64,000 bases of DNA from Longimicrobiales bacterium (GCA_965203485.1 OZ241892.1:320001-384000); one strand, 5' to 3'; shown: positions 26,569-62,184, counted from the first letter of the stretch. Made by a program: numbers and translations. Notes: generated from the sequence alone by a model not told the origin.

Positions 26569-26660
26569 TCCGATATCTTATCCGCTGGCCCGTCGGCACG
26601 CGAGACGGCCGGTTTGCTCGAAGCGCCTCGGCGGCGAGTGTGGCAAAGGAGGGCGCGGCA

Positions 26661-31836: not shown

Positions 31837-34800
31837 AGTCGGAATACGACTTCTCCCGGGCGAGCATCGGGAAGTTCTACCGGGAGAGGGCCAGCGTTCG
31901 CCTGCCGGACGGGGGTCCCGACCAACGCCCGGATGACCGCCGGACCCCGCAGTTCGACAAGCTGATCGCCCTCCTGAAGGAACTATTCCAGCTAGACCGA
32001 CCCGACTTGGACTTCGGGTTCTACCGCATCATGCACGCCAAGAGCGCCGAGATCACGAAGTTCCTGGAACAGGACCTGCTGCCGCAGGTGCGCGACGCGC
32101 TATCTCAGTACCAGTCAGCGGACAAGGCCGTACTGGAACGAGAATTGACCGACGCCTTGCGAAGTGCCGAAGCCCTCGGCGTGAACCCCGACGACTCCAC
32201 CACCGTCAAGGATCTCAGGGCCCGACTCGACCACGCCGTGGACGTAAAAACGCTCGAAGCCGAGGTCTACGACCATCTCTACGGATTCTTCCGTCGCTAC
32301 TACTCCGACGGGGACTTCATCAGCAAGCGCGTGTACAAGCCCGGCGTGTACGCCATTCCCTACGCAGGCGAGGAAGTCAAGCTCCACTGGGCGAATGCGG
32401 ACCAGTACTACATCAAGACGACGGAGTACCTGCGCGACTACGCGTTTCGCTTGCAACCGGCCAGCGACGCCGATCCCATGCGCGTCCATTTCCGCCTTGC
32501 CGATGCGACCGAGGGCGAACACGGCAACATTAAGGAAGCTACGGCCAAAAAACGTGTCTTCGTGCTCCGGAACAGAGACTTCCTATCTGAGGAGAAAGGC
32601 GAACGAGGCAATGAGCTGGTGATCCGGTTTGAGTATCGTCCAGCGACGTTGGCCGACTGGCCAGAAGACCGACGAGCACACCAAAGAAAGCCGCCCACCC
32701 AGAAGGATCTGCTCCGTCTTGCCGAGGTCCGCCTATTGCAGGCAAGTGATCCAGGACTGGTCCGCTGGACCAAAGCTCTGGCCGCACCACACGTCAGTGC
32801 CACTGGTGAGCCGACCGGCAATTCACGGTTTGGCACACACCTAGATCGCTATACGGCACGCAATACCTTTGACTACTTCATCCACAAGAACCTGGACGGG
32901 TTTCTTCGCCGAGAGTTGGATTTCTATATCAAGAATGAAGTCATGTATCTGGATGACATCGATAACAGGGCCGCATTGGCCGTCGAGCAGTATTTCTCCA
33001 AGATCAAGGCAGTGCGGCACATCGGCTCAAAAATCATCAATTTCTTGGCACAGCTGGAAGATTTCCAGAAAAGGATGTGGCTGAAGAAAAAATTCGTAGT
33101 GGAAACTTCATACTGCGTTCGTTTGGACTGTGTACCAAAGAAATACTGGCCTAATGTCATGGCAAATCACGCCCAGCGTCACGAATGGACAACTCTATTG
33201 TCACATGACGGACACGATCGCGACTCGACTGGCATCGATTTCAACGGTTCCGGAGCCCTCGGTGATCATCCTGGCCTACTTGTCGATACATGCCATTATG
33301 ATAGTCAGTTTCGCGATCAACTATTGAGTGAATTCCAGAATATCGACAAACTAGTGGACGGAATTCTTATACACGGTGACAACTGGCAAGCACTTCGTAT
33401 GCTCGATCACAAGTATGACCGTAGCATCAAGCATGTCTACATCGACCCTCCGTACAACACAGACGCGACGGCGATTCCATACAAGAACGATTACAAGCAC
33501 TCCTCGTGGCTATCTCTCCTGGACAGTCGTCTTCGTCTATGTGCTAGGCTGTTGGAAGACGATGGCATCTTGGTGGTAGCAATAGACGAGAACGAACAGG
33601 AAAGGCTTGGCCTCTTGCTGAATGACCTATTCCCTAGCCACGCGCGCACGTGCGTGACAGTTGTCCACAACCCTGGCGGAATCCAGGGCGACAATTTCTC
33701 CTACAACAACGAGTTCGCGTACTTCATTTACCCGGCCAAAGGTCGTTCTATCGGACTCTGGAATCGTGAGGAAGCTCCGGACATCCGGCCGCTGAGGGAT
33801 GTTTCAACCGGGCAGCACATGAGAACAGACGCCCGGAATTGCTTCTATCCGATCTTGGTACGAGAGAACGACGTAGTAGGATTCGGCGACGTCTGTGATG
33901 ACGATTATCACCCGGAAGCTGCTAATGTTGTAGGTGCTGATGGTACTATTGAAGTATACCCAATAGATGCAAGAGGAAATGAACGCAAGTGGGTCTTTAG
34001 TCGGCAGACTGTAGAATCGATCAAAGGAGAACTCGCACCGAAATGGAATACGTCTAGAAAAATTGTCGACATCATCCGACGCAAGACTATGTTCAATTAC
34101 AAAACGGTATGGACCGACAAACGCTATAACGCAAACAGCTACGGATCAAAGTTGCTCAAGGACATCTTGGGCAAGCACTCAGCTTCGTTTATGTTTCCTA
34201 AGTCTTTGCATACCGTCTCAGATTGCATTGGTGCAGCGACTGACTCTGGAACCGACGGCCACCAGGTCGTGCTGGATTTTTTCGCAGGATCTGGAACCAC
34301 TGCTCACGCTGTCATGAAGCTGAACCGTGAGGATGGAGGCAGGCGGAAATTTGTGCTGGTGGAGATGGGCGACTATTTTGACTCGGTCCTGGTGCCACGC
34401 ATCAAAAAGATCAGTATTGCACCAGAATGGAAGGGTGGAAGGCCGAAGCGCGGTGCGACATCGGCGGAGAACGAGAGGTCGCCGCGCGTTATCAAGGTGG
34501 TCAGACTCGAGTCGTACGAGGATGCCATAGGCAATTTGCGTACACGAAGGGGCAATACGGCAGATCGGTCAGCACTCGACTTATTCTCGCGGGGGGACTC
34601 GGGGGAAGCTCGGGAACGGTACTTGCTCAACTACATGCTTGACGTGGAATCACAGGGTAGTGCGTCGTTGTTGAGCATTTCGGCATTCCACGACCCGACT
34701 TCCTACCGACTCAAGGTGAAGCGGCCGGGTACGGACGAGAGTCGGGAGGTCACTGTTGACCTGCTTGAGACGTTCAACTGGCTCATTGGACTAACGGTAC

Positions 34801-35180
34801 ATCGCATGACCGCGCCGCGAGCCTACTCGGCCGACACGGAACGAGATGCGGAAGGTCGGATGCAACTTGTCGGTGGATTGAGCGATCAGGACGATGGCCC
34901 ATGGTGGTTCCGCACGGTCACCGGTACGACGCCCGACGGTCGGCGCGTCCTCGTGATCTGGCGCAAGCGGCCGGGTGGCGAGTCGCCAGATGGCATTGAG
35001 GGAGACAACCTCGTGCTCGACGAGTGGTTCAAGCTTGCGAGCTCGTTTCGGGACGATGATGCGTACGACCTCATCTACGTCAACGGCAGCAACAATCTTG
35101 AGAACCTCAAGTCGCCGTCGGATACATGGACCGTTCGGCTCATCGAGGACGACTTCCATCGACTGATGTGGGAGCAGTGA
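31833..35180 (+). CDS. mod: Type III R-M methyltransferase (Mod) with N-terminal antitoxin-like peptide
   Basis: [36 protein letters not shown]. First ~25 aa ([17 protein letters not shown]...LP) resemble BrnT-partner antitoxin N-termini; ATGA overlap with brnT. Confidence 0.9.
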
Positions 35181-35182
35181 CC

Positions 35183-35780
35183 ATGGCGACACAGTATCGC
35201 GAAGGGAGCTTTCCGCCAGAAGACCGCATGGGGCAGGTGGGAGCGCTACATCCACGAGGACGCGGCCGATCGGCTGCGTCCAGCTTGCTGTCGTTCATGC
35301 CGAATTCGAGGCTCTTCACCCGTTCCTGGACGCTTGTTGGAGCACGGCGTGATCAGCCAACCCCTCTTCTCCATCAGTGCCTACCTCGAGGCTCGTCGAG
35401 CCGAATACTACGAAGGACTGCTCGCCGTCTCCCGCGACGACGAATGGACGGGATGTTGGTCTTCTTGAAGGCGGTGCTGGCCCATGCCATGGACCACCTG
35501 TCAAAGGCGAGAGCGCTCCTCGGCCTCTACGAGACGATGAAAGAGCGGGTGGCAGACGTTACCCGGTCCCAGTATGCCATTCCTGCGCTTGATTGGGTTC
35601 AACAGCGCCTGGTTCTCAGTCCATGCGGGCGTCCCAACCTGCACGGCCCGACGGCTCTTGGCGAAACTGGTCGACCATGGCGTACTGCGGGTCCTCCAGG
35701 ACCCCAGCGGCCATCGGGGATCCATCCTGGTGCTCCCGGACCTCCTGCACGTTGCCGAGGGAAGGGATGTCTTCCGACGG
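35183..35780 (+). pseudogene. Fic-family remnant
   Basis: HAEFEALHPFLD at 35296-35331 without the GNGR..R half of the motif; ISAYLEARRAEYYEGLLAVSRDDEW and a C-terminal HTH-like part in shifting frames. Confidence 0.75.
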
Positions 35781-36003
35781 TCACGGATGGCCGTCAAACT
35801 CGTTCGGTGGCCACTTCCGGCACTTGGTGGCCGTTGCTTTGTCCTCTTGGCGGTCATTTCTGGCACTATATGGCCGTCCTGCCTGCTTGGCGGTCACGGG
35901 CGAAATCGGTTTGGCGGTCACATTCGGCGTTCTGTGGCCGCTTGGTCATCTTTGCGGTCACGCGTGTCCGCGAAGCCAGGTCGGCGGCCATACTTCCGGT
36001 TAC

Positions 36004-39321
<3,318 letters not shown>

Positions 39322-43553: not shown

Positions 43554-43777
43554 AGGCGCGCCCGACCCGCCGCCGTCTTTGCACGACCCATCCGGCCATG
43601 TTCCCGGCCCGGCAGTCGGGCCATCGTAATGGGGCTAGGCTGGCGCGCGGCCCGGCCGCGCCCGTTTGACGACTCCCGTTCGCGGCGCCCAAGTTGCTGT
43701 TACGTTACGATTCATTCTCCCTCGTTCTGGGACGCGATGAGACCCACCGGCGGCGCCAACACCACGACCGAGGCGCA

Positions 43778-44953
43778 ATGCCGCCGGACTGGGCCGTGAC
43801 GGGCCGCCCCGAAGTCTACCTGGACAACAACGCCACCACCCGCGTCCTGCCGGAGGTGGCGGAGGCCGTCGCCCGGACAATGCGGGACGGTTGCGGCAAT
43901 CCTTCGAGCGTGCACGCCGCCGGCGCGCGAGCCAGGAAGCGGCTGTGGTTGGCCCGGGAGCAGGTCGCGGCCCTCGTTGCGGCCGATCCGGCCGCCGTGG
44001 TGTTCACCGGAGGGGCCACCGAAGCCAACAACTTGGCGCTCCAGAGCCTCCTCGGCGGGCCGATGGACGGCTACCGCCTGGTCACGACGGCCGTGGAGCA
44101 CCCGTCGGTGCTGGCCGTTGCCGGTGCGCTCGCGCGGCTGGATCGCGAGGTCGTGACGTTGCCGGTGGATTCGAACGGTATCGTCTGCGAAGAGGAGATG
44201 GCCCGGGCGATCGCGCCGGAACGGACGCTGGTCTCCGTCCAGTGGGCGAACAACGAGACGGGCGTGGTCCAGCCGATCGCGCGGTTGGCGACGCGGGCGC
44301 GGGCGCTTGGGGCGCGCTTCCACGCGGACGCGGTCCAAGCCGTCGGCAAGCTGCCGGTGGACTTGAACGCCGTCCCCGTCGATTTCCTTTCCCTGTCCGG
44401 CCACAAGCTGCACGGCCCGCTCGGCGCGGGGGCGTTGGTGGCGCGAGACCGAAGCCTGTTGCGGCCGTTGATGTTCGGGGGAGACCAAGAGGCGGCCTTG
44501 CGCCCTGGCACCGAGAACGTCCCGGCGATCGTTGGCCTCGGCGTTGCCTTGGCGCACCGGGCGGACCGCTTCGAGGCGGTAGCAACGGCCACGCGCGACA
44601 TGCGGGACGCATTCGAGTCCGGCGTCGCCAGACGGGGACTCGCGCGAGCGGTGAACGGCTCGGGCGCCCCCCGCTTGCCCAACACGTCCAACGTCCACTT
44701 TCTGGACATGGACGGCGAGGCGCTCGTCGTCCGGCTCGACCAGGCGGGCGTTCGGTGTTCCCAGAGTTCGGCCTGCACCAACCAGCGCCCCGAGCCGTCC
44801 TACGTGCTCCGCGCCATGGGCCTATCCGAACGCCAAGCGTACGCCAGCGCGCGGTTTGCCTTCTCCGAACTCAACCGCATGGCCGACGCGAACGCCGCCG
44901 TCGAGGCCATTGCCGCCGTCCACGCGAAGCTGCTTCCCTTCGCCGTCGCCTGA
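43778..44953 (+). CDS. sspA: Cysteine desulfurase (IscS/DndA/SspA-like)
   Basis: YLDNNATT, NNETG, SGHKLHGP (PLP Lys), SSACT (catalytic Cys); first gene of the DUF4007-ATPase-PAPS reductase operon. Confidence 0.88.
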   Translation: MPPDWAVTGRPEVYLDNNATTRVLPEVAEAVARTMRDGCGNPSSVHAAGARARKRLWLAREQVAALVAADPAAVVFTGGATEANNLALQSLLGGPMDGYRLVTTAVEHPSVLAVAGALARLDREVVTLPVDSNGIVCEEEMARAIAPERTLVSVQWANNETGVVQPIARLATRARALGARFHADAVQAVGKLPVDLNAVPVDFLSLSGHKLHGPLGAGALVARDRSLLRPLMFGGDQEAALRPGTENVPAIVGLGVALAHRADRFEAVATATRDMRDAFESGVARRGLARAVNGSGAPRLPNTSNVHFLDMDGEALVVRLDQAGVRCSQSSACTNQRPEPSYVLRAMGLSERQAYASARFAFSELNRMADANAAVEAIAAVHAKLLPFAVA

Positions 44954-44964
44954 AGGAGAACTCG

Positions 44965-45921
44965 TTGCGCTTCGGGGGACACCAGACGTTCGCGATCCGC
45001 GGCGGCTGGCTCTACAAGGGCCTTCGCATGGTCGTGCAGAATCCGGAACGCATGGACGATCCGGACGTGGCGGACTGGCTGGGCGTGGGGCGTAACATGG
45101 CCAAGTCCATTCACCACTGGCTTCTGGCCACTGGCTTGGCCGAGAAGGAGTTGACCGGCGGCGGCCGCACCAGGGCGCTTCGCCCGACGGACCTCGGCAA
45201 GACGGTCTGGGAGCGCGACCGCTATTTCCTGCTGCCGGGGACTTGGTGGGCCGTCCACGTCCAGTTGATCGACCGGCCCGCGTTCGCGTTCACGTGGAAC
45301 TGGTTCTTCAACGTGTTCAGCTCCGCGCGGTTCGAGCGTCCGGTGTGCGCAGAGGCGTTGCGGCGCCACTTGGCTGCCGGCGGCGGCCGGACGCCCAGTC
45401 CGCGCACGCTCGACCGGGACGTGGCTTGCCTCCTCCGCTCCTATTCGGTGAGCGTGCCGCGCCCGGAAGAGGACCCGGAAGACGCGATGGAGTGCCCGCT
45501 GAGCGAGCTGGGCATCATGCTCCATTCCCGCCAGACGGGGTTCTACCATGTAAACCGCGGACTCAAGCCCATTCCGTTCGAGCTCTTCGGGTACGCTCTA
45601 GCTGTCGGCCGGAAGCGTCTTCTCGGACGGCAGGCCGCTGGTCGAGCTGCCGGCGGACAACGGCCCGGCGATGGGCTCCGCGTGAACGGAGACCGGTCGC
45701 TTGCCGAGCTTGTCCATGAAGCCGGCGCCCCCGGACGGGTCTTCGCGATGACCGCGGAATCCTTGTACGAACTGGTGGCGGGCTACGAGGCGGAAGGACG
45801 GGTACGGCTGGACGGCCAAGCCGGAGAAAGGATCGTCCGCGTTCGGACAAGCGGGCCCGGGCCGGAATGGATGGCGCGCTACTACGACTCGGCGGACCGA
45901 GCCGCGGAGCAGGCTGCCTAG
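44965..45921 (+). CDS. sspB: DUF4007-family protein (SspB-like)
   Basis: AAGGAG RBS + TTG; FGGHQTFAIRGGWLYKG, LGVGRNMAKSIHHWL, ECPLSELG. Confidence 0.85.
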   Translation: MRFGGHQTFAIRGGWLYKGLRMVVQNPERMDDPDVADWLGVGRNMAKSIHHWLLATGLAEKELTGGGRTRALRPTDLGKTVWERDRYFLLPGTWWAVHVQLIDRPAFAFTWNWFFNVFSSARFERPVCAEALRRHLAAGGGRTPSPRTLDRDVACLLRSYSVSVPRPEEDPEDAMECPLSELGIMLHSRQTGFYHVNRGLKPIPFELFGYALAVGRKRLLGRQAAGRAAGGQRPGDGLRVNGDRSLAELVHEAGAPGRVFAMTAESLYELVAGYEAEGRVRLDGQAGERIVRVRTSGPGPEWMARYYDSADRAAEQAA

Positions 45922-48186
45922 GCCATGGTCCAGACCGCCTTCCTCCGCTCCATCAACATCCAGCTCGACGCCGGGCATCCCGAGCGCTTCGAGCACTTTC
46001 GACCAACGTCCAAGTCCGTGCGCTTGGTCTCGTCGCTGCTCCAAGGCGAGACGGGGAACGCGGTCTTCGTCGTTGCGCCGTACGGGTCCGGCAAGTCCGT
46101 CACGGCGGGATACGTAGGGCACTTGGTGGAAAACCGCCCCGAGGCCGCGGCGATGTTGCGCTTGGTCGAGGATCGGTTGGCGGGAATCGGCCCGGATCTG
46201 CGCAACCAAGTGGCGCGTAGGCGGACGGCGCCGCGACGGGGGCTGTTCGTCCCCCTCTACGGCCATGTGGACTCCGCGCCGGCCGCTCTGCGGAAGGGGT
46301 TGCTGGACGCGATGCGCCGAACGTCTTTGGGCAGGGAAGCGCGATCCGTCGCCGCGTTGGACGCGACGCGCGCCAACGACGTCCCCGCCCTGGTGAACGC
46401 ATGCCTCTGCAAGCTCGAACAAAGCGGACGGGATCGCTTGGTGATCGTTTGGGACGAGTTCGGACGCCACCTTCAAGGCTTGGTCTCGGAGGGCAGGCCG
46501 GAGGAGCTGGACGTGCTGCAGGCGTTGGCCGAGGTGGCCAGCCGCAGCGCCGGCGTTCCCGTGTCGCTCGTGCTGCTCCTGCACCGGTCCCTTCTCGGCT
46601 ACGCAACCGGATTGCCGCCGGGCTTGCGGCGAGAGTGGGCCAAGATCGAAGGCCGGTTCGAGACCCTCCAGTACGTGGACGACTCCACGGAGTTGTACGA
46701 ACTGGTGAGCTCGCTCGTTGCCGAGAACCGAGCCGTAGCAACGCCGAAAGCGGACTTCGCGCGCTTGGCGGCCGAAGCGAGAGACGCCGGGATGTTCCCG
46801 GACGTCGCCGAGGACCGCTTGGCCGGCATTCTGGCGGCGGCCCACCCGCTGTCCCCGGCAACGGTCTACCTGCTGCCTCGCGCAGCAGCCCGCGTCGCCC
46901 AGAACGAGCGCACTCTGTTCTCGTTTCTGCAGTGGGCGTCCTTGGACGCGCCGGTCTCGCCCGGAGCCTTGTACGACTACTTCCGAGGCGACTTCCGCAC
47001 GGACGGAGGCGCCGGCGGAACGCAACGCCCGTGGCTGGAGACCGAGAGCGCCTTGGGCAAGGTGGCGGACGGCTCGCTGGAGGCGGAAGCGCTCAAGAGC
47101 GCGTTTCTCCTGGGCCTGGGCCTGAGCGGGGAGCGGGGCCACGCAACCCGCAAGCAGCTGGCCTTCGCGTTGAAGGATGCTTGCGAAGAGACCGAATCCG
47201 GCGCGGACGGCGCAAGCCTCCCCGCTCTGCGTCTTGAGCCGGGGGTTGCTGGTGAAGATCAAGCGACGGGGCCCGGCCGCGCGGTCGACGAACTCGTGAA
47301 GCGGAACCTTCTCGTGCACCGGCGCCATTCGGACCAAGTCGTCGTTTGGCACGGGACCGACGTGGACTTGCGCGGCCGCTTGGAGGACGAGAAGAAGCGC
47401 CACGCGGGCGACTTCGATCTGGTCTCCTTCCTGGGGCGGGAGTTGCGCCCCCCCGTGTGGAGGCCCGTGGAATACAACGCAAGGCACGGAATAAGGCGCT
47501 ACTTGGAGGCCGAATACGCCACCTTCGCGGGGTTGGAGGCATTTTGGGATCGAATTCGGCTGGAGGGCTGGACGCCCGGGACGGACGGCCGCGTGCTGCA
47601 CGTGCTGCCGCAAGACGCGGACGAACTTGTCCAGGCCGAGGACATGGCCGCCGGCATCGGCGATCCGAGATTGTTCGTCGCGGTGGCGCGTGAAGTCTCG
47701 GCCCTCCGCAACGCCGCCGTCGATCTGTGGTGCCTGTTGCGGATGCACGCCGACCAGGACATGATTGGCGCCGATCCCATGATTGGCGCCGAACTCAACC
47801 ATCTCACCGACGACGCCCGAGCTGGGTTGCAGTCGCTTGCGGACCGTGTGCTGCGCCCCCAGCCCAACGGCAGCCGCTGGTTCCGCAAGGGCCGTCCGGT
47901 CGAGGCGGCCGACTTGCCGCAGTTGCGCCGGGCGCTGTCGCAAGCCATGGAGGAGGTGTTTGCCCTCACGCCCGAGATCGATTCGGAAATGGTGGTCCGG
48001 CGGTCGCCGTCGCCGGTGATCGTGAACGCCCGCAAGAAGGTCGAACTCGGCTTGTTGGAACGGTACGGCCGGGAGGACCTCGGCATCGAGGGCAACTCCG
48101 CCGACAAGGCGATCTTCAGGAGCGTGTTCCTGAGGACGGGTCTGTACTGCCCAAACGGCAACTCCGCCGGTTCCCCGCGCGCGGGC

Positions 48187-48290
48187 GAGACCTGCCAAAA
48201 TGGCAGAACTCGGGTCTCGGAGGCCGAAGAAACCTGCCAAAATGGCAGTATGCTGAGGGCCAGAAAAGACGAAACCTGCCAAAATGGCAG
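48187..48290. repeat. Three 20-bp repeats GARACCTGCCAAAATGGCAG at 42-bp period with different 22-bp spacers
   Basis: Copies at 48187, 48229 and 48271; core CTGCCA-AAA-TGGCAG is a perfect inverted repeat; degenerate fourth copy near 48147. Confidence 0.9.
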
Positions 48291-48659
48291 AACCTGGTTC
48301 CTGGCCGCTCCCGAGGACATGACCGGTCGTCCTGGCTTGAAGGCCGTCTGGGGTCGCGTCCGGGACTTCTTCGCGGAGCCCGGCAGGTCCAAGCCCTTCG
48401 GTGTTCTGCTCGACGAACTGAAGGAGCCGCCCTTCGGCGTGCGAGAAGGTCTCCTGCCGTTGCTTCTCGCCGCCGGCTTCCGAGCATTTCCCTCCGCAGC
48501 AACAATCCGCAAGGGCCGCGTGTTAGTGGACGACGTGTTGCCCTCGACGGTCGAGGACATCGCAAAGCACCCTGACCAATACGTCCTGGACGTAGTGGAC
48601 CTCGGGTCGGCCGAGAGGGCGTACCTGAACGCGTTGTCCGGTTTGTTCGGCATTACTTC

Positions 48660-48684
48660 GGGGGGGGGGGGGGGGGGGGGGGGG
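48660..48684 (+). repeat. G25 homopolymer inside sspC
   Basis: Direct count: 25 consecutive G. Confidence 0.95.
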
Positions 48685-49563
48685 AGAGGCCCCATTACGC
48701 GGTTGCATAGCGGGTCTCCGAGAGTGGAGCCAACGGCTTCCGCGTAGCGCCGCGACGTCGCGTTTCCTCTCGCAGGAGGCGCGGACATTTGCCAGGGAAC
48801 TCGAGTCGGCCGACGCCGTCGCATTCCTCTTGGACCACCTGCCGCGTCTCGCGGGCGGATCCGTCGGCTCGCCCGAGTTGCTGGACGGAATCGCAGGGAT
48901 CAAGTCCGAGCTCGAGCGCGTAGGCACGACATTTCGGGACGAGGCCGTCCGTGCACTGCGCGAGGCCCTCGTGGCGCGTGGCGTCGCCGACGGCTTCGGC
49001 GGGTTGCCGAGTTGCCCTGCCGTGCGTGACGACGACCGCGCCACCGGTTGCGTTGTACCCAGTGCAACCAAAATTAACAACGCCGACTCGCACCCACCGG
49101 CGGTGGCTTTCACGTCTTGCGCCAGCGCCAACGCGCGCGATCACGCCGCGGCCTGGGCGGCGTGCTTCCCCGAGTCCTTCGTTGCCCACCTCGCGGACCG
49201 AGTGGCCAAGGGGGTCCTGACCCTTCTCGCCAAGCCGCACGACGACGACGGCGCGCTCGCAAACGCCCTGTCCACGCTGTTGCTGGGCCTGCCGCTCCAT
49301 CAGTGGAACGACGCCTCTCCGTCTTCGTTCCGCCGACAGCTGCACAGCGTGCTCGAGACGATCGAGGGCGCCGCGTTCGATCTGGCCCGCCGTCGCGGCC
49401 CGGATTCCGAGATCAGATCCGGGCTGGCCAAGCTGGCCGACGCCCGAACGCGCCAACTGGCCTCCCGTCTCGCCGAGTTGCTCGGCCGCGAAGAGGCCGC
49501 GCGCACGCTGGAAGCGGTCGCGGCACGCTTGCACGCGTCGGCCGGCGTCACCGCAGGCCGCCC

Positions 49564-50364
49564 ATGACGACCACCGACCAAGCCGCCGCGCTCGGCGCCG
49601 ACGGCGGGCACCGTCACATCGTCAACGTCTCGGGCGGCAAGGACTCGGCCGCCCTCGCCCTGTTCATGCAGGACCGCTACCCCTCCTTGGCCGTCGAGTA
49701 CGTCTTCTGCGACACCGGTTGCGAGTTGCCCGAGACCTACCAGTACCTGACCCGCCTCGAAGCCGTCTTGGGACAGAAGATCGCGCGCCTGAACGCCCTC
49801 GACCTGCTCGGCATCGCCAAGAAGCCCGGCCGAAACCCGTTCGACATCTGGTTGCACGAGGTCTACGGCGGCTTCCTCCCCAGCCCGCGCGCCCGCTGGT
49901 GCACCCGCGTACTGAAGATCAAGCCGTTCGAACACCATGTCGGCGACGACAAGGCGTTCAGCTACATCGGCATCCGCGGCGACGAGCACCGCGAAGGCTA
50001 CGCCTCCTCCAAGCCCCCCGTCTTCTCCGAGCAGCCGAACATCGTCCCCGTCTACCCATTCAAGGACCACGCCTTGGGACTCAACGACATCCACATGATC
50101 CTGGAGACCTCGGGACTCGGCCTGCCGAGCTACTACGAGTGGCGCTCTCGCTCAGGCTGCTACTTCTGCTTCTACCAGCAGGTGGGCGAATGGCAGGGGC
50201 TCAAGGAACGCCATCCCGAATGGTTCGAGCGGGCGAAGGAATACGAGGCGGCTGGCTTCACGTGGGTGGACGGTCGGACCTTGGAGGACATCGCCGCGCA
50301 GCCGAAGCGAGAACCGATTTCGGCGGCGGATGGCGGCGGCGGATGCGCGATATGCCATCTGTGA
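49564..50364 (+). CDS. sspD: PAPS-reductase-family protein (SspD-like)
   Basis: PP-loop SGGKDS, DTGCELPETY, RWCTRVLK, RSRSGCYFCFYQQ, C-terminal CAICHL. Confidence 0.88.
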   Translation: MTTTDQAAALGADGGHRHIVNVSGGKDSAALALFMQDRYPSLAVEYVFCDTGCELPETYQYLTRLEAVLGQKIARLNALDLLGIAKKPGRNPFDIWLHEVYGGFLPSPRARWCTRVLKIKPFEHHVGDDKAFSYIGIRGDEHREGYASSKPPVFSEQPNIVPVYPFKDHALGLNDIHMILETSGLGLPSYYEWRSRSGCYFCFYQQVGEWQGLKERHPEWFERAKEYEAAGFTWVDGRTLEDIAAQPKREPISAADGGGGCAICHL

Positions 50365-50852
50365 CGCAGACCTTGCCGCGAGGATGGAGCCTGGATACCA
50401 AGCACTGGCGCATGCTCGCCGACAGCGATCTCGGCTGCGGTTGGAAGGTCGTACCCTTCGTCGAACAATGGCGAAGGGACCCGCCGGAGACATCTGGCGT
50501 GTACGTGATCAGCGGCTCTCCTCCGATTGAAGGACCGCTGTCGTCGTCCTGGTGTCCGCTCTATGTCGGGCAGACGCAGAATCTACGCGCCCGTTTCGCA
50601 GATCATCTGGGCAACAAGACGAACGTGCGCCGCATTCGCTTCTTTTCGTCTTTGAGATTTCACTTCTTTACGGTTCCCGGCGACACGCGCAGGCGCCGGA
50701 TCGTAGAACAACTACTCCTGGACGCCTTTGGCCCGGCTGCGAACGCAAGGCGATCTCTCGGCGTCACCGTCGGTCCAGAAATAAAGGGCATCGTCAAGCG
50801 TGGCCTTGCCTTAGCCAAGACAACATCCATCAAGAAAGCCGAATCGACATGA
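50361..50852 (+). CDS. Small GIY-YIG nuclease-family protein (163 aa)
   Basis: SGVYVI...LYVGQTQNLRARFADH...E...N; GTGA and ATGA overlaps with both neighbours. Confidence 0.8.
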   Translation: MTQTLPRGWSLDTKHWRMLADSDLGCGWKVVPFVEQWRRDPPETSGVYVISGSPPIEGPLSSSWCPLYVGQTQNLRARFADHLGNKTNVRRIRFFSSLRFHFFTVPGDTRRRRIVEQLLLDAFGPAANARRSLGVTVGPEIKGIVKRGLALAKTTSIKKAEST

Positions 50853-51325
50853 ATCTTTATCCTGCAATTCACGCGACGATGGGCAGCTGGACCTATTACA
50901 TCGTAAAGCTCACGATGAGAGAGGTACAGGAACACATAAAATTCGCTCATGACATCCACGATGATCACACTCTCGATGATGCGATTCAGCGCACCATCAA
51001 CGAATCCAGAGTAAAGAAGGAAATCGTCTCGTATTTGCAGCGCCAGCACGATCGGTTCTTTTCTTCTCTTGTCGTCGCAGCTCTTGAAGGAAACCCCATC
51101 TGGTATCCAATTTCTATCGCCGACGACGAAAAATTTGCGATCTTCAAGGACGATTCCCGTCTTGCTTCTGCGTTCGGCGTCCTTAAGTTCGACGGGATGT
51201 CGAGCGACAACCAAGATGAGACGGTAGCGGCAACCAAGATGAGACTGCCGGAGGCGGCCGTGATCTGAGGTCGAGGGATTCGGACGCGGGTTCGGTCCTG
51301 TCGTTCGGAGGCCGGCCGTCGGTGA

Positions 51326-53748
<2,423 letters not shown>

Positions 53749-55644
53749 CCGCCCGGCTGCCCGGCCCAACGCCCGCGCCGACGACCGACCACCTGATCGG
53801 CGCCCGGGCTCGCTTCCACAACCGCCTCCGACTCGCAACCCCGGCGCCGGCGCTCGTGCGGAAGTCCCATGAAACAACCCGAATTCAGGGGTATCCCAGG
53901 TCGGGTCCGTGCGAGACCTCGCGTTAGACGGCCAGCAGCGGCCTCGAATTCCGGCAAGACCAGCCAACTCTCCGCGATCAAGCGCTTTGGGTCGGACGGG
54001 TGCCTGCTCCAGGGCCTCACTTGCCCCATGCCCAACCCCCTCGTCTTGACCCGTTCCACCTCCGTTGCCATCGTTCCTGTCACGATCCTGGACGTCTCAT
54101 CCTGATTGTCGCCGGGGTCTTATCCTGATTGTCGCTCTACAACGGGACGCAAAAATATTATGCATTGGACGGCCAGCACCGCCTCTCGGCAATCAGAACG
54201 CTCCTCGATTCTTCGGGAGACGAATGGAAGAACGCGCCGAAGGACTTCGCCAACGAAGAAATCTCCGTAATCATAGTGATGCCACCACAGGGGGATTCGT
54301 CGAACGACTTCTTCAAGCGATATCGGCGATTGTTCGGCAACCTTAATCGATATGCCAAACCGACTTCCCACTTTACCAACATCGTGATGGACGAGGACGA
54401 CACATTTGCGATTCTCACGCGACGATTGATCACCGAGCATGACTTCTTCAAGGCAAAAGAGGTGCCATACAAGGATTCACCCCGAATCAAGATGAAAAAA
54501 GGAAAAAACGTTGTCGGCAGGAGTACCGTATTCACAAGCCTGGAGACGCTCTACGCGATGAATGAACATCTTCTCAAGTCGCCGACGCGGCTCAATGCGG
54601 GATGGACGGACCGGACCTTCAAGGCATTTCGTCCGGATGACGACGAGCTGGACGACCTCTTCGGAGAATTGCGAAGACTCTGGGATGCTCTACTCGCGGT
54701 GTTGCCTGGCTTGCGCATGGACCCCGTCGTCATGCGATGTCATTCCAAAGAAAGCGACAAAGACTGCCTCCACAAGACCGAGAACATTGAGTGCGACGAT
54801 TCCGCGCTCTTTTGGCCCGTCACGCAGGAAATTCTTGCGAAGATGGCCCGAAAGTTAGTTGATGAAGACAACGTGGACGTCGATGGGACGTCGAGCTTCG
54901 AGAAGCGCTTGGAGCCATTGGCCCGGATCAAGTGGTCTCTTTGGATGCCTCCGTGGCGCAATTTGATTTTGATTCAGGACGGCAGCGGGTCCTGGAAGAT
55001 GAGAAACGAGGAACGAGCGAAGGCGGTAGAGGTCGCCGAGCGCATTCTCCTGTGGCAGCTGGGCATTGCATCTCTCGACCGCGACGGCCTGAGGGATCTC
55101 CGGGATGCTTGGCAACAATACCTGTTGCCCGACTTGGCGCCGCATAGGAAGGACGACATGTGGGAGGAGATCGAGTCGGCTCGCGCCCTTGGGTGATCGG
55201 CTTCGGCGAATCAGTTGTCGTCACCGAACGCTCGGCGTCGCCGTGGCGCGATATCAAATGACTGGACCAGGAAGGTCGACGACAGGCGACGCCCTTCCCT
55301 CTCGAACATATATCCACGCACGGCGAGTGGTTGCCGTTGGCGATTGCGGGCGTCGGCATTTGGTCGCCTGCGAGCGGCGTGGGAACGCCGGACGCCTTAC
55401 GGTGTCGCCGACGGCGGTGGAACCGCATCGAGGTGTTGTTGCCGGACGGTTTGCGAAAGCAGTGGAATGGAGTAGCCGGGCTGACGGTTGGGTCGCCGAT
55501 CGCTTGGACGGAGGTCTGGAGTTGCCCCGGTATGGTGGACGGGCAAGGATCTTGGGTTCAGATGGTGCAATGTGAAACATGACTTTAGGAAGGACGGAGG
55601 CGCAAGGGCGCCGAACGGTCTCGTGTCGAGGGGGTCGGTGCACT

Positions 55645-56493
55645 TTACGCGACCGCACGCTTGCGCTCGAAGCCGGCGGGGGATTCGTAGCCGAGCGCCG
55701 AGTGTCGGCGCCGCGAGTTGTAGAAGCCTTCGATGAAGGCGAAGACGGCGCGCCGGGCTTCGGCCGGACTTGTGAACTGGCAACGGTCCAGCAACTCGCA
55801 TTCCAACGTGGCGAAGAAGCTCTCGCACATCGCGTTGTCGTAGGCGTCGCCCACCGAGCCCGTCGAGCGACGCACGCCGGCCTTCCTGCACCGCTCGCCG
55901 AACGCCCAGGACGTGTACTGCGACCCCTGGTCCGAGTGATGGATCACGGTCTCTGGACTGCGGTTCTCGACGGCCATGGCGAGCGCGCGCTCGACGAGTT
56001 CGCCGCGCAGGTGCGTCTCCATGGCCCAGCCGACGACGCGGCGGCTCCAGGCGTCGACGACGACCGCCAGGTAGAGCCATCCGGCCCCGGCCGGCACGTA
56101 CGTGATGTCGGCGACCCAGAGCTGGTCGGGGCCTTCGGCGCTGAAGTCGCGCTCGACCAAGTCCGGAGCCGGGCGCGCGTGGGCGTCGCGCACCGTCAGC
56201 GCCACCTTGCGGCGCCTGCGGCTCGCGCCTTCGATGCCCTCCTCGCGCATGAGGCGGGCGACGCGCTTCGGACCGACGCGCTCGCCCCAGGCCGCGAGAT
56301 CGGCGTGGATGCGCGGTCGCCCGTACGTCCGCCGGCTCGCTTCCCAGCTGCGGCGCACCAAGACGCGCAACGCGTCGTCGCGCAACGCGCTCGCCGATCG
56401 GGGACGCTTCAGCCATGCATAGAAGCCGCTCGGGGAGAGACCGAGGACGCGGCACATCGCGCGCACGGGAAACACGGCCCGGTGCGCTTTCAC
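55645..56493 (-). CDS. IS3 transposase OrfB
   Basis: Translation identical to 14354-15202. Confidence 0.95.
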   Translation of the reverse strand: MKAHRAVFPVRAMCRVLGLSPSGFYAWLKRPRSASALRDDALRVLVRRSWEASRRTYGRPRIHADLAAWGERVGPKRVARLMREEGIEGASRRRRKVALTVRDAHARPAPDLVERDFSAEGPDQLWVADITYVPAGAGWLYLAVVVDAWSRRVVGWAMETHLRGELVERALAMAVENRSPETVIHHSDQGSQYTSWAFGERCRKAGVRRSTGSVGDAYDNAMCESFFATLECELLDRCQFTSPAEARRAVFAFIEGFYNSRRRHSALGYESPAGFERKRAVA

Positions 56494-56804
56494 GAACTCG
56501 AACCCTCTCCGGGAATCGAGCCGCTCTCCCGAGCGAACCAGGCCGCGGCTTTTTTTAGAATGTCGCGCTCGAGGCGCAACTGCTTGTTCTCCCGCTTCAG
56601 GCGGCGCAACTCGTCCCGCTCGCGCGTCGTCGTCCCGTCGTCGCGACGGCCCTCGTCGAGATCGGCCTGCTCGACCCAGTTGCGGATCGTCGGCGCCGAC
56701 GGCTCGAACTCACGCGCCAGCGCCTCCGGCGACCGGCCCGAACGCGCCAGATCCACCATTCGCCGCCGGTACTCCAGCGGGTACTGCTTGCGTTTCTTCG
56801 GCAT
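56490..56804 (-). CDS. IS3 transposase OrfA
   Basis: Translation identical to 15199-15513. Confidence 0.95.
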   Translation of the reverse strand: MPKKRKQYPLEYRRRMVDLARSGRSPEALAREFEPSAPTIRNWVEQADLDEGRRDDGTTTRERDELRRLKRENKQLRLERDILKKAAAWFARESGSIPGEGSSS

Positions 56805-58297
56805 CGTGGACTCCTCCTCGTCCCGAAAGATTGAACGTGTCCACCATGCCGGGGCAACTCCAGGTCGTCTGGTTGAGATCAGGCTTCCGGCGATCCGCGA
56901 GGGCTGGTCAAGTTACGAGGGCAGGTCGACGGTCGGCAGAATCATCATGCCGATGTTGACAACCGATCGACGGCGGCTTCCACTGTATGCGTACCAAAGA
57001 GAAGGACTCCGCAGGCTCATACGATCTCCCCGGTTTCTGCTTGCCGACGACATGGGGCTCGGAAAGACCATCCAGGCCGTAGTGGGCGCAAAACGATTGT
57101 TGGAAAGGGGACTCGTGCGCAGAATCTTGGTTGTGGCCCCGGTATCCGTCTTGCGCAATTGGGCCGTCGAGTTCGGGCGGTGGGCGCCAGAAGCATGCGT
57201 TCGAATTGCCATGGGGGCGTCGGCGCATGTCGCCTTTGAGGACTGCTGGAAGAACACTCATGTAATGGTGACGAACTACGAACAAATGCGTACGCCCGCT
57301 GCTGCGGTCTTGGAGCATCCGCCGGGATTGTTAGTGTTGGATGAAGCCCACAAGGTGAAGAAGTGGCGGTCGCAGAGGACGGAAGGAATTAGGAGAATTG
57401 ACGCGCGTTGCATATGGGCGCTGACGGGAACGCCGCTCGAGAAGGGCGAATTGGACCTTATTGGACTCATGAGTCTCCTGTTGCCGTCGAAGTTCAGTTT
57501 GCTGGATCGCGATCTTCCTCCGTCGATGTTGCGGGCACGAATCGAACCGTACGTGTGTAGACGAGAGAAGGCTGATGTACTCCGCGACTTGCCGCCAATA
57601 CAATATAGGAAGGAGAGTATACAGCTAACACCGAGGCAACGAGAAGCATACCAGAAGCTTGAATCGGAGATGAACACTACGGACGAACCTCTCGCCGTCT
57701 TTAGTCGGCTTCGCGAAGCCTGCGACTATGATCGCGCGACCGGCGACAGCGCGAAGATCGAGCGAGCATCAGAGCTCTTGGAGCGGATGTGCAGTAGCAG
57801 TGGGGCGAAGGCCGTTGTGTTCTCATACTTGCTGAAGCCGCTTAGACTTCTTCGAGCACGCTTGGAGGACATGAAACTGCCGTTCTGCGGCATCTATGAT
57901 GGTAGCTTGGAGGCATCGGAACGCCAGGCGCTCCTTGACGAGTTCTCGGCGCTCGAAAACGGAGCATTGCTGGCGTCGATGAGGGCGGCGGGAGAGGGCT
58001 TGACGCTTGTGGAGGCGAATCATGTGGTGCTGATCAATCGATGGTGGAACCCTTCGGCGAACCAACAAGCGATAGATCGCGTCCATCGCATTGGGCAACG
58101 GAAGCCCGTGACCGTCCATTGGCTGGAGGCGGTGAACACCCTGGACGAACGTTTGACCAAGATGTTGGGGAACAAGGAAGAGCGTTTTGAAGAGGTGATC
58201 GGACGTCTTCGACAAGGGCTGGCGACGCCGAAGGGGAGTCAGCCGAAGGCTTGAGGGCCGCTTCGGTCCTTGCGATCCGCTGGGTCCGAGCGAGCCG

Positions 58298-59473: not shown

Positions 59474-59775
59474 GGACGCTTCCTGGGTCGCTGGGGTTCC
59501 GGTGGTCTCCGGTCGAGCGGGCCATCGGCGGAGATCGTGGGGCGGGGCACGGAGCGCAACTGCAGTCGGCCCCTTAACCGTGGTGATTTCGTTGGGACAC
59601 CGGAATGGTTGAATGGGACGAGGCGCGGCACACTCGGACGACGGGCGGGAGGGCATCGGAGGACTCCTTGCCTTCCCGGCCGCCGTGCCTCACTTTGCCC
59701 GACTCCGCCGAGCGGTCTCCAAGCGCCGCAGGCGCGCCGTCCCACGAGAGAGTCGCTCCCAACGCCCGCACCATC

Positions 59776-62184
59776 ATGAAGCTCAACTTCCATCCGCTCC
59801 TTTCCCGGTCGGTCCCTGCCGTCGCGCTCGCAGTCCTCCCGGCCGCGCCCGCCACCGCCCAGACCGGCTACCGCGAGCCCCCGCCCGCCGTCGTCGACAT
59901 TCTCGACGCGCCGGCCGCGCCCTTCGTCTCGACGAGTCCGGACCGGCGGTGGCTGGCCCTCGCGCACCGAAAGAACATGCCGAGCATCGAGCAGCAGTCG
60001 CAGCCGATGTTGCGGCTGGCGGGCAGGAGGCTCAATCCGGTGACCAACGGGCCGTTCGGGGTGTCGCTGGTCACCGGCATCGGGTTGCTGGAGGTGGAGA
60101 GCGGGACCAAGTGGACGGTGGCGCTGCCCGGCGACGAGGGCTGGTCGACGCCGGTGTTCTCGGACGACGGCGAGCGGCTGGCGGTGGAACGGGCCACGTC
60201 GCAAGGCACGGAGCTGTGGGTCGTGGACGTCGCGACGCGCGAGGCGATTCGTCTCGTCGGGCCGCGGCTGAACGGGACGATGGGGCGTCCGTGCCAGTGG
60301 ATGCCTTCGGGGGACGAAGTGCTCTGCCGGCTGGTGCCGGAGGGCCGGGGCGCTCCGCCCGAGAGGCCGGCGACGCCGGGAGAGCCGGTGATCCAAGAGT
60401 CGGAAGGCCGGAGTGCGCCGGTGCGGACGTACCAGGACTTGCTGAGGGGGCCGCACGACGTGGCGCTCTACGAGCACTTCGCGACGGCTCAGCTGGCCCT
60501 CGTGGACGCCGAGGACGGGCAGGTGCGGGCGCTGGGAGAATCGGCCGCGTACGGGTCGGTTCAGGTGTCGCCCAGCGGCGAGTTGATTCTAGTTGAGCGA
60601 ATCAAGAAGCCGTTCTCGTACTTGGTGCCGGACCGGCTGTTCCCACGGTCCGTGGAGGTCTGGGACCGAGCGGGGAACCGGGTCGCCGAGGTGCACGAGG
60701 TCCCGCTGGGCGAGGGCATCCCCATCGGGGGCGTTCGGGACGGCCCGCGGAACCACCGCTGGATGGACGGCGCGGACCATGTCCTGCTCTACACCGAGGC
60801 GCTGGACGGGGGCGATCCGCGTGCGCAGGTGGCCGAACGGGACAGGCTCATGGCGTTGCACGCCCCCTTCGACGGGGCCCCGGAGGAGCTGGCGCGCACG
60901 GAGTTCCGCTTCGCCGGGCTCGTCCGTGGCGCGGGGGACTTCGCCTTCCTCTCCGAATACGACCGGCCCACCCGCACGCGGCGCACGTGGAAGGCCGACA
61001 CGGGCGCCCGTCCCTTCGCCACCGAGCTGCTCTGGGAGCTGAACTCCGAGGACCGCTACTCCGACCCGGGCGCTCCGGTCATGGATGCGACGGGAGAGCG
61101 AATGGTCCAAACCGGCGACTGGATTTTCCTGCGGGGCGCCGGGGCCTCCGACGAAGGCGACCGTCCCTTCCTGGACCGCATGAACGTGGAGACGGGCGAG
61201 ACGGAGCGGCTTTTCCAGTCCGGTCCCGCGTCGTACGAGAGCGTGGTCGCGTTGCTGGACGACGAGGGCCGCCGCGTGCTGACGCGCCACGAGTCCAAGA
61301 CGGAGCCGCCGAACTACTTCGTGCGCGTCCTGGGCAGCGACGACCGGCGCGCGCTCACGGAGTTCGCCGATCCCGCGCCGCAGCTGGCGGGCGTCGAGCG
61401 CGAGTTCCTGGTCTACGAGCGCGAGGACGGGGTGCAGCTGTCGGGCACGCTCTACCTGCCCGCGGACCACGGCGGCGGCCCGCTCCCGGCGATCGTGTGG
61501 GCCTACCCGCGCGAATACGCGAACGCGCGGACGGCGGGCCAAGTGAGGGGATCGCCGCACCGGTTCAACCGCATCGGCGGCGCGTCGCACATGTTCTTCC
61601 TCACGCAGGGCTACGCGGTCTTCGACGGACCCACCATGCCCATCGTCGGCGGCGACACGGCCAACGACCGCTACGTCGAGCAGCTCGTCTCATCGGCGAA
61701 GGCGGCGGTGGACTTGCTGGTGGAGATGGGCGTGGCGGACCCGGACCGGATAGGAATCGGCGGCCATTCCTACGGCGCCTTCATGACGGCGAACTTGCTG
61801 GCGCACTCCGACCTCTTCCAAGCGGGCATCGCGCGCAGCGGCGCGTACAACCGCACGCTCACGCCCTTTGGCTTCCAATCGGAGCGGCGCACCTTCTGGG
61901 AAGCGCCCGACCTCTACTTCGCGATGTCGCCCTTCATGCACGCGAACGACATCGACGAACCCATGCTGATGATCCACGGCGCCGCCGACAACAACTCGGG
62001 CACGTTCCCCGTGCAGTCGGAGCGCATGTACCACGCCATGAAGGGCCTCGGCGGCAAGGCGCGCTTGGTGATGCTGCCCAACGAGAGCCACGGGTACCGG
62101 GCCCGCGAGTCCGTGTTGCACGCCTTGGCCGAAATGATCGAGTGGTTCGACCGCTACGTGAAGAAGGAAAAGGACAAGGCGTGA
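59776..62184 (+). CDS. Secreted S9 (prolyl oligopeptidase family) serine peptidase
   Basis: Signal peptide; GGHSYG, HGAADNN, ESHGY catalytic triad. Confidence 0.92.
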   Translation: MKLNFHPLLSRSVPAVALAVLPAAPATAQTGYREPPPAVVDILDAPAAPFVSTSPDRRWLALAHRKNMPSIEQQSQPMLRLAGRRLNPVTNGPFGVSLVTGIGLLEVESGTKWTVALPGDEGWSTPVFSDDGERLAVERATSQGTELWVVDVATREAIRLVGPRLNGTMGRPCQWMPSGDEVLCRLVPEGRGAPPERPATPGEPVIQESEGRSAPVRTYQDLLRGPHDVALYEHFATAQLALVDAEDGQVRALGESAAYGSVQVSPSGELILVERIKKPFSYLVPDRLFPRSVEVWDRAGNRVAEVHEVPLGEGIPIGGVRDGPRNHRWMDGADHVLLYTEALDGGDPRAQVAERDRLMALHAPFDGAPEELARTEFRFAGLVRGAGDFAFLSEYDRPTRTRRTWKADTGARPFATELLWELNSEDRYSDPGAPVMDATGERMVQTGDWIFLRGAGASDEGDRPFLDRMNVETGETERLFQSGPASYESVVALLDDEGRRVLTRHESKTEPPNYFVRVLGSDDRRALTEFADPAPQLAGVEREFLVYEREDGVQLSGTLYLPADHGGGPLPAIVWAYPREYANARTAGQVRGSPHRFNRIGGASHMFFLTQGYAVFDGPTMPIVGGDTANDRYVEQLVSSAKAAVDLLVEMGVADPDRIGIGGHSYGAFMTANLLAHSDLFQAGIARSGAYNRTLTPFGFQSERRTFWEAPDLYFAMSPFMHANDIDEPMLMIHGAADNNSGTFPVQSERMYHAMKGLGGKARLVMLPNESHGYRARESVLHALAEMIEWFDRYVKKEKDKA

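Follow-up and report, generated by a model that had tools for sequence, protein, structure and literature searches.

In this study we describe an operon in a 64,000-nt stretch of DNA from a Longimicrobiales bacterium (positions 320001-384000 of the single 3.557-Mb contig of genome G000), hereafter the window. Seven genes on its + strand, between 43.7 and 58.3 kb, were identified with Pfam and PADLOC as sspA, sspB, sspC and sspD, followed by genes for a GIY-YIG nuclease, a DGQHR protein and a SNF2 ATPase. Sequence comparison indicates that the operon is probably an SspABCD phosphorothioate (PT) modification system with a third restriction arm, neither SspE nor SspFGH, made up of a small GIY-YIG protein, a DGQHR protein of ~460 aa with a ParB/Srx-type fold and usually a SNF2 ATPase of ~550 aa. 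The window holds a recently inactivated copy of this PT-based defence. In this copy the arm is dead: the DGQHR gene is interrupted by an insertion sequence (IS) of the IS21 family and the SNF2 gene by an IS3-family element. As a third lesion, sspC changes frame at a run of 25 G.

Linkage of the cassette to sspBCD

The distribution of the cassette ties it to the modification genes. A profile search of 1.84 billion cluster representatives returned 470 DGQHR relatives at E<=1e-30, and in a search with the C-terminal piece of the protein, 1,317 of 4,801 candidates, mostly of ~460 aa, passed E<=0.001. From a profile-guided scan of species-representative genomes we obtained 187 stretches, at least 174 of which encode a DGQHR relative; the best 80 gave 77 loci, and the window proteins were compared with these by tblastn (E<=1e-5). 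Within 10 kb, sspD is present in 68 of the 77 loci, sspC in 67 and sspB in 63. When only the loci with full 10-kb flanks are considered, sspD is found in 55 of 57, and of the two exceptions L008 has sspD elsewhere in its genome, ~13 kb away, and the genome of L042 is without it. In 58 of the 68 loci sspD precedes the DGQHR gene on its own strand, and in 29 the distance is below 1.2 kb. The genome of Acidithrix ferrooxidans PY-F3, a cultured carrier, has GIY-YIG, DGQHR and SNF2 together on one contig and sspD on a different one. A SNF2 gene accompanies the cassette in 52 of the 77 loci, and a strong SNF2-related domain was found in 32 of the 55 downstream open reading frames (ORFs) scanned. The loci span nine phyla; 16 come from Poribacteria and two from Candidatus Poriferisodalis, both lineages known from sponges. 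A first-pass annotation of this DNA had suggested testing whether the trio recurs downstream of sspD in unrelated genomes, and would have dropped its proposal had trio and sspBCD never co-occurred elsewhere; the trio does recur beside sspBCD in many unrelated genomes.

A similar picture emerges within the phylum to which the window belongs. Among 301 genomes, 20 encode SspD and 11 the DGQHR protein; all 11 are SspD-positive, and the protein occurs in 0 of the 281 SspD-negative genomes. The close full-length form is present in eight of the 11 and a distant GIY-YIG/DGQHR pair in the other three, and nine of the 20 SspD-positive genomes are without the cassette. The pattern is one-sided, yet it does not permit a clean statistical test because the genomes are related to one another.

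These data bear on the idea that the trio acts independently, perhaps as a modification-dependent nuclease equipped with a motor, and merely shares defence islands with Ssp, making no use of PT. The window is a defence island in which a type III Mod/Res pair occupies 31833-39321 and an Eco57I-like gene 2-3346; the SNF2 core is similar to those of ZorD, DpdE and DrmD, and one genome, that of L042, has a DGQHR protein without SspD. The co-occurrence, however, goes far beyond the sharing of islands, both in the full-flank loci and in the phylum sample, where every DGQHR-positive genome is SspD-positive. Moreover, the order is fixed on one strand, the cassette follows directly after sspD in the 29 loci with less than 1.2 kb between them, and stop and start codons overlap along sspD, GIY-YIG and DGQHR in the window. 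We consider an independent system very improbable and keep to the reading of the trio as an arm of Ssp.

The scans also turned up variants of the cassette. In L129, L130 and L131 (genomes G199, G231 and G058) a GIY-YIG and DGQHR pair with 31-38% identity to that of the window lies ~8 kb from sspD; no SNF2 match was found at these loci, and the pair looks like a second subfamily of the GIY-YIG and DGQHR pairing. The cassettes of L011, L021 and L073 and those of L062, L063, L070, L071 and L077 have either two DGQHR-type genes in tandem or an extra upstream ORF. The extra ORF, of 607-651 aa and upstream of the DGQHR gene in five loci, has a weak DndB-like Pfam match in L071 and L077 only. A gene for an S9 peptidase stands to the right of the operon both in the window (59587-62184) and in L053 (11666-14524), where DGQHR is the last gene of the cassette and SNF2 is missing. 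A plasmid collection contained no full-length member of the DGQHR family; five of its records have partial (<60% coverage), ~33%-identical DndB/DGQHR proteins.

Gene organisation and lesions in the window

The genes and insertions of the operon are as follows, with E values for profile matches:

43694..44953, +, sspA, cysteine desulfurase (Aminotran_5 4.3e-65; PADLOC SspA 9.4e-117)
44965..45921, +, sspB (DUF4007 1.9e-53; PADLOC SspB 2e-97)
45925..48659, +, N-terminal 912 codons of sspC, first reading frame (PADLOC SspC 6.4e-120)
48660..48684, +, run of 25 G inside sspC, site of the frame change (from the sequence, with the frames to its left and right compared)
48685..49567, +, C-terminal part of sspC in the +1 frame, ending in an ATGA overlap with sspD (G+C at third codon positions 0.79)
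49564..50364, +, sspD, of the 3'-phosphoadenosine-5'-phosphosulfate (PAPS) reductase type, 266 aa (PADLOC SspD 6.9e-89; PAPS_reduct 3.3e-8)
50361..50852, +, GIY-YIG nuclease gene, 163 aa, intact, GTGA overlap with sspD (weak Pfam GIY-YIG match, family alignment)
50849..51197, +, DGQHR (ParB/DndB-like) gene, 5' part, 116 codons (DndB profile positions 1-71, 9.6e-8; TIGR03187 2.6e-10)
51198..54141, +, IS21-family element, 2,944 bp, with istA at 51380-52954 and istB to 53748 (IstB_IS21 3.6e-64)
54148..55196, +, DGQHR gene, 3' part with the DGQHR motif (DndB profile positions 99-328, 8.8e-22)
55258..55516, +, SNF2 gene, 5' part, probable start ATG at 55258 (residues 2-81 of the L001 ortholog align to 55288-55515 with 56% identity)
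55517..56862, -, IS3-family element, 1,346 bp, TG...CA ends (transposase domains rve 5.7e-26, HTH_21, HTH_Tnp_1)
56867..58254, +, SNF2 gene, 3' part with all helicase motifs (SNF2-rel_dom 9.5e-37, Helicase_C 6.2e-16)

The first-pass annotation had described seven tightly coupled, co-oriented genes, and this description is sound in its genes, a set found in tens of unrelated genomes, and in its junctions. Reading of the sequence gives an 11-nt gap between sspA and sspB, AGGAGAACTCG, with AGGAG inside, a 3-nt gap between sspB and sspC, and three 4-bp stop/start overlaps, ATGA at 49564, GTGA at 50361 and ATGA at 50849. Two start codons come into consideration for sspA, TTG 43694, where the ORF begins, and ATG 43778, the start chosen in the first-pass annotation. 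The assignment of the first four genes to SspABCD is upheld by PADLOC, with E values of ~1e-89 to 1e-120: the four named proteins are encoded in one operon, with sspC changing frame at its G run. SspD gives a weak cross-match to the DndC profile (~16 bits, E ~1e-3), and beyond such weak cross-matches the PADLOC scan of the window proteins showed no Dnd-specific protein.

As a reference for the broken genes we used, gene by gene, the intact orthologous operon of locus L001, whose products share 63-87% amino-acid identity with those of the window (79% for SspA, 83% for SspD and 63% for the GIY-YIG protein). The two parts of the DGQHR gene add up to 1,398 nt and 465 aa in frame, and the closest intact relatives have 448-502 aa; L001 residues 1-116 correspond to the 5' part with 87% identity and L001 residues 114-460 to the 3' part with 69%. 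The IS21-family element between them has the inverted ends TGTCGAGCGACA / TGTAGAGCGACA and is bordered by a 6-bp target duplication, ACGGGA, at 51192-51197 and 54142-54147.

The SNF2 gene required a new gene model. The helicase had been placed at or just after the DndB stop, and the corresponding ORF at 55579-58254 (891 aa; SNF2-rel_dom 6.7e-36, Helicase_C 1.3e-15) is a chimera that consists in part of the antisense strand of the IS3-family element. The real gene comprises ~55258-55516 and 56867-58254, together 1,647 nt and 548 aa, and most relatives have 539-584 aa. Its 3' part corresponds to L001 residues 79-531 with 65% identity and contains the motifs LADDMGLGKT, DEAH, TGTP and WWNPS..QA.DR..RIGQ, of which Walker A, DEAH and motif VI are conserved across the family. 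N-lobe, Helicase_C, Walker A and DEAH are thus all present, and the product is a SNF2 ATPase whose gene the IS3-family element interrupts. Three known defence helicases were rejected as its identity, as the scores fall far below the NCBIfam cut-offs (ZorD 114.9 vs 1500, DrmD 78.7 vs 950, DpdE 76.6 vs 500) and reflect only the shared SNF2 core.

The IS3-family element, flanked by a 4-bp target duplication, GGTC, is 100% identical to window positions 14226-15571, and the genome contains eight full copies; there are three copies of the IS21-family element. Since all copies of each are 100% identical, the insertions are recent and both types of element active. In four public short-read runs (one study, two samples), the depth over the IS21 and IS3-family elements is ~3x and ~11x that of their flanks. 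No contig of these runs joins an empty IS21 or IS3 site, which does not amount to absence of such sites, as contigs drop rare variants.

Protein families and comparison with known systems

The GIY-YIG protein is recognised by Pfam only below the cut-off (E 0.0045, 17.7 vs 22.6 bits), and its membership follows from the alignment of its family. Nine columns, G46, Y48, Y68, G70, R78, H82, E116, P125 and N128, are invariant in 28 aligned members; among these the two Tyr, Arg, His, Glu and Asn are what we take to be the GIY-YIG catalytic set, so that the GIY/YIG tyrosines and the Arg, Glu and Asn are all accounted for. A profile built from the ORFs upstream of the DGQHR gene matches 66 of the 77 loci, and in 55 of these 66 the GIY-YIG gene ends at -4 to +124 nt from the DGQHR start. 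For three of the 11 loci without a match (L012, L014 and L074) the upstream DNA is too short to permit a judgement. In six of the remaining eight, another nuclease is encoded directly upstream of the DGQHR gene:

L023, L024: GmrSD_N+GmrSD_C, a full SspE-like protein
L026: GmrSD_N+HNH
L030: HNH+HIT
L042, L075: HNH_2

Such swapping fits a constant ParB-like partner with an exchangeable effector, that is, a sensor-effector pair. A complex prediction for DGQHR and GIY-YIG returned a score of 0.00, 'no answer', which is evidence neither for nor against binding.

The DGQHR protein belongs to the DGQHR/ParB-Srx group by domain model, motif and a ParB-like fold, the fold matches being weak. D124, G125, Q126, H127 and R128 are invariant in 20 sequences, and the intact ortholog P0002 passes the generic DGQHR-domain model TIGR03187 with 108.9 bits against a cut-off of 58.85. 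It fails the DndB equivalog TIGR03233 (59 vs 328 bits; the window pieces reach 24 and 28.8 bits), and PADLOC DndB gives 41-58 bits on intact orthologs. For this reason the label 'Ssp/Dnd hybrid', given to the operon in the first-pass annotation, is not apt; in substance that interpretation is otherwise correct. A ParB-type domain also forms the N-terminus of SspE, so the module need not come from a Dnd system. The structural model of the N-terminal domain (predicted local distance difference test, pLDDT, 77) matches ParB/Srx proteins: PadC (Z 6.0), sulfiredoxin (6.0), pNOB8 ParB (5.7), SspE 6jiv (5.7, 128 residues aligned), KorB (5.2) and BrxU (5.1).

How does the cassette relate to the restriction partners already described? 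SspE combines an N-terminal ParB-like DUF262 (GmrSD_N) NTPase domain with a C-terminal DUF1524 (GmrSD_C) HNH nuclease domain and senses PT before it cuts DNA, as described in the accessible text of PMC8092258, PMC8713573 and PMC10853773; the first two report its restriction as PT-stimulated. SspABCD-SspE and the window operon have in common the SspA-D genes, a ParB/Srx-fold domain in the partner and a nuclease. Unlike SspE, to which an HNH nuclease domain is fused, the trio has its GIY-YIG nuclease as a protein of its own, a SNF2 motor, and a DGQHR protein with a 260-aa C-terminal domain for which no solved relative was found; a DUF262/DUF1524 protein is absent from it. Neither the trio nor its intact orthologs have GmrSD_N or GmrSD_C Pfam domains. 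The genome has two GmrSD-like ORFs with weak matches to SspE profiles (<30 bits), ~0.7 Mb and 2.8 Mb from the operon. As for SspFGH, the accessible part of PMC8092258 gives a Walker A motif in SspF and an FtsK/SpoIIIE-like C-terminus in SspH. The trio resembles this system as a multi-gene restriction cassette adjoining sspBCD, but when compared by the domains described it has GIY-YIG, DGQHR and SNF2 in place of those features. The first-pass annotation had set the trio apart from both types, and this agrees with PADLOC, in which the trio pieces and the intact orthologs of five loci have no match at E<=0.01 to SspE, SspF, SspG or SspH; SspE profiles are present in the library, and the presence of SspF, SspG and SspH profiles in it is unverified.

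By analogy with SspE we propose that the logic of the arm is SspE-like but split over several proteins. SspABCD would mark the host DNA with PT. The ParB-like DGQHR protein may act as a nucleotide-dependent PT sensor or switch, in the role of the ParB-like N-domain of SspE, and the GIY-YIG protein would supply the DNA cutting that the fused HNH domain performs in SspE. The SNF2 motor, where there is one, might move the complex along DNA.

In a different scenario, the cassette serves modification: DGQHR would be a DndB-like brake on PT or a DpdB-like ATPase, and GIY-YIG and SNF2 would nick or remodel DNA for sulfur insertion. The best family matches of DGQHR are indeed of the DndB type, in Pfam and in PADLOC, the cassette genes are translationally coupled to sspD, and L023 and L024 have a full SspE-like gene in addition to the DGQHR gene. 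A regulatory function in PT modification is attributed to DndB (accessible text of PMC4507180, PMC10853773 and PMC12839542), and DpdB is described as a ParB-like ATPase that drives base insertion (accessible text of PMC12839542). However, IscS-SspBCD alone gave PT in E. coli according to the available text of PMC8092258, so an extra nickase or motor is not required. In addition, nine of the 20 SspD-positive genomes of the phylum sample lack the cassette, the partner upstream of DGQHR is a nuclease of varying family (GIY-YIG, HNH, GmrSD), as is typical of effectors, and the DGQHR protein fails the DndB equivalog by a wide distance. A role in modification is therefore unlikely, and a restriction arm remains our preferred explanation.

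The two modification systems invoked in this scenario differ from the window operon in other ways as well. DndB and the window protein share a DGQHR/ParB-type domain, and the latter matches both Pfam DndB and TIGR03187; it is ~100 aa longer, though, its gene belongs to the 3' end of an ssp operon, where a nuclease gene precedes it, and no Dnd-specific gene was found. DpdE is the SNF2 protein of the Dpd 7-deazaguanine system. In that defence, which is likewise based on DNA modification, a ParB-like protein and a SNF2-type ATPase occur together, as in the window, and the SNF2 protein of the trio matches DpdE profiles at 1e-48 to 1e-53. In contrast to Dpd, the window operon has neither tRNA-guanine transglycosylase (TGT) nor Dpd modification genes, its predicted modification is PT, and the DpdE score stays below the cut-off, as given above. 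In the accessible text of PMC10853773 and PMC12839542, SspE is treated as the DndB equivalent and SspB as a triple winged helix-turn-helix protein, and that text holds no description of this cassette. The trio beside ssp genes was likewise undescribed in the literature searched, which lacked most subscription journals, and to this extent the earlier suggestion of a candidate undescribed PT defence arrangement holds.

Several observations weigh against a restriction arm of this kind. SNF2 is absent in 25 of the 77 loci, especially those of Poribacteria, and hence is not a core part, and in the genome of L042 the DGQHR protein occurs although SspD is absent. The full SspE-like gene next to DGQHR in L023 and L024 indicates that DGQHR is not a simple replacement of SspE and could be a DndB-like regulator. 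The fold matches of its N-terminal domain are weak, all with Z <8, and possibly reflect a common arrangement, and Foldseek with the full model found nothing at E<=0.001. The 260-aa C-terminal domain (pLDDT 90) has no recognisable solved relative: Foldseek again gave nothing at E<=0.001, VIA-align reached at best Z 4.8 with generic helical matches, which does not show a new fold, and a profile search of solved structures with the DGQHR alignment gave only chance-level matches (E ~0.5).

G/C runs in sspB and sspC, neighbouring genes and significance

The third lesion differs in kind from the two insertions. Residues 1-856 of L001 SspC align to 45925-48651 and residues 869-1150 to 48695-49531 in another frame, which places the frame change between 48651 and 48695, around the 25-G run at 48660-48684. 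Either 24 or 27 G would put sspC in frame, and L001 sspC is without the run. The contigs of the public runs end at 48650 and resume at 48696; because they break at the run, its length is unreadable from these data. In our reading the frame change is not decay; it represents either a slipped-strand switch in its OFF position or a miscalled run length.

Comparable runs recur in the relatives. The 77 related loci (1.46 Mb) contain 17 runs of >=12 nt, and 14 of these fall within the sspB-sspC span, which makes up 22% of the DNA (binomial P 2e-7; 5e-4 with relatives collapsed to 8 of 11). They lie within sspC in L020, L029, L055, L057, L060, L067, L073 and L076, within sspB in L070, at the 5' end of sspB in L071 and between sspB and sspC in L072; in three Poribacteria loci (L011, L013, L022) the run is ~220 nt upstream of sspB. 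Tract lengths are unusually long, 12-32 nt. The frames on the two sides differ in the window, L029, L055, L057, L067, L070, L073 and L076 and agree in L020 and L060, so that eight of 10 evaluable intragenic runs are out of frame. L029 and L073, with a common left flank at one site, have 16 vs 14 G, and at one coordinate L060 has 14 G in frame vs 16 G out of frame in L057; the contig name of L060 suggests a short-read assembly. The sample, with runs of >=12 nt in the sspB-sspC span of 14 of 77 cassette loci, and no run >=11 nt in 13 other Ssp loci of the window's phylum (226 kb), is too small for us to claim a link between G/C runs and cassette-bearing loci.

The window's own genome is rich in such tracts. 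G000 contains 44 G/C homopolymers between 11 and 30 nt in length, of which 42 measure 14-30 nt and only the one in sspC lies inside the window; no A/T run is >8. Besides sspC, many are found in or beside two Eco57I-like methylase genes, an N6_N4 methylase gene and two Mrr-ResIII-methylase genes, a TonB-dependent receptor gene, a sugar transferase gene and GDSL hydrolase genes, and a 13,392-codon fn3 ORF and six ORFs of 3,846-4,901 codons. With its methylase/restriction, outer-membrane receptor and polysaccharide genes and its giant ORFs, the list resembles a set of contingency genes. Eight long runs are clustered at G000 2327773-2332623, where four G24 runs spaced 925-926 nt apart suggest a tandem array in which each unit has its run.

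The recurrence of long G/C runs in sspB and sspC suggests that phosphorothioation may be phase-variable in these lineages. In the window, sspC has the repeat and the frame change of a phase-variable gene, and run lengths differ between related genomes; lengths within the population are unreadable, as contigs break there. As in phasevarions, in which restriction-modification genes bear simple repeats, a long homopolymer lies in a DNA-modification gene with frames differing on its two sides, and run length varies between relatives. A further parallel is the poly-G switch in pglX of the Streptomyces Pgl system. Unlike phasevarions, the ssp case concerns PT, and its tracts are unusually long. A 2018 review states that simple repeats were not seen in dnd genes or their promoter (PMC6435447), and repeat-driven phase variation of PT genes was not reported in the literature searched, from which most subscription journals were missing.

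The frame change in sspC could instead reflect an assembly error in the length of the homopolymer, or a mutation that leads nowhere, with G/C runs that have no switching role. Many of the related records are single-contig metagenome-assembled genomes (MAGs) of uncultured organisms, and homopolymer length is error-prone in such assemblies; the ON and OFF states used here derive from assembled consensus, in which these lengths are unreliable, a point that weakens the case for a switch. Eight of 10 runs out of frame is suspiciously many, the public contigs break at the sspC run, and the 13 other Ssp loci of the phylum are without runs. Nonetheless, the runs are real and non-random, as judged from their concentration in the sspB-sspC span also after collapsing of relatives, their positions in sspB or sspC vary between lineages, lengths differ at one site in L029/L073 and L060/L057, and the genome itself has 42 runs of 14-30 G/C, in or beside a classic contingency-gene set, with no A/T run >8. 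We regard error or a dead-end mutation, with runs that do not act as switches, as a somewhat unlikely account, one that touches this lesion only.

At least six loci (L029, L055, L057, L067, L073, L076) combine uninterrupted cassette genes with an sspC whose frame is broken at a G/C run. An intact cassette beside an out-of-frame sspC would be tolerable if restriction needs PT to fire, and the arrangement of these loci points to a PT-stimulated logic for the cassette. Taken together, a more far-reaching proposal can be formulated, to which we give somewhat less than an even chance: a third Ssp arm, horizontally spread through at least nine phyla, may work as a split, SspE-like, PT-stimulated machine, with a ParB-type DGQHR sensor, an exchangeable nuclease that is usually GIY-YIG and a SNF2 motor, in a defence that is switched on and off as a whole by slippage of long G/C runs in sspB or sspC.

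The surroundings of the operon, in a window whose G+C ranges from about 0.54 to 0.78 across 2-kb windows, hold further genes of interest. The Eco57I-like restriction-methylase gene at 2-3346 (-) continues to the left of the window as far as G000 318849, and a C22 run just outside the window start (G000 319758-319779) separates two differently framed parts of it. The type III pair (+) consists of Mod at 31833-35180, which has an N6_N4_Mtase domain, and Res at 35593-39321 (PADLOC REase_III 6.4e-220); it shortly precedes the Ssp operon, in DNA whose G+C is lower (0.54-0.58). At 3794-7108 (-) an AAA_22 ATPase gene adjoins a gene with Schlafen AlbA_2 and HATPase_c_4 domains; these may be further defence-type genes of the same island. 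Repeats are also present: eight copies of a ~312-nt tandem unit, 63-71% alike, occupy 21830-23377 and 25015-25938, the latter block inside an ORF (23848-26577) with bacterial Ig-like (Big_1) repeats and a leishmanolysin-like domain, and two segments of ~400 nt each, at 27657-28054 and 30922-31321, are 92-95% alike and 3.27 kb apart, which points to local duplication.

According to the accessible text of Wang et al. (PMC8092258), 2,211 of 2,678 sspBCD clusters (~84%) have neither SspE nor SspFGH, and further partners were suggested. The cassette is a concrete candidate for part of this majority; in the phylum sample it occurs in 11 of the 20 SspD-positive genomes, in eight of them in a closely related form. 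With its split architecture, experiments could address sensing, cutting and translocation one by one, in contrast to the fused SspE, where they are inseparable. The decayed copy in the window shows a route by which such systems are lost, through recent IS hits in the presumed restriction genes. Finally, recurrent G/C runs in sspB and sspC would make the PT epigenome heritably switchable and, if this is true, would represent the first repeat-driven phase variation of a DNA-backbone epigenome.

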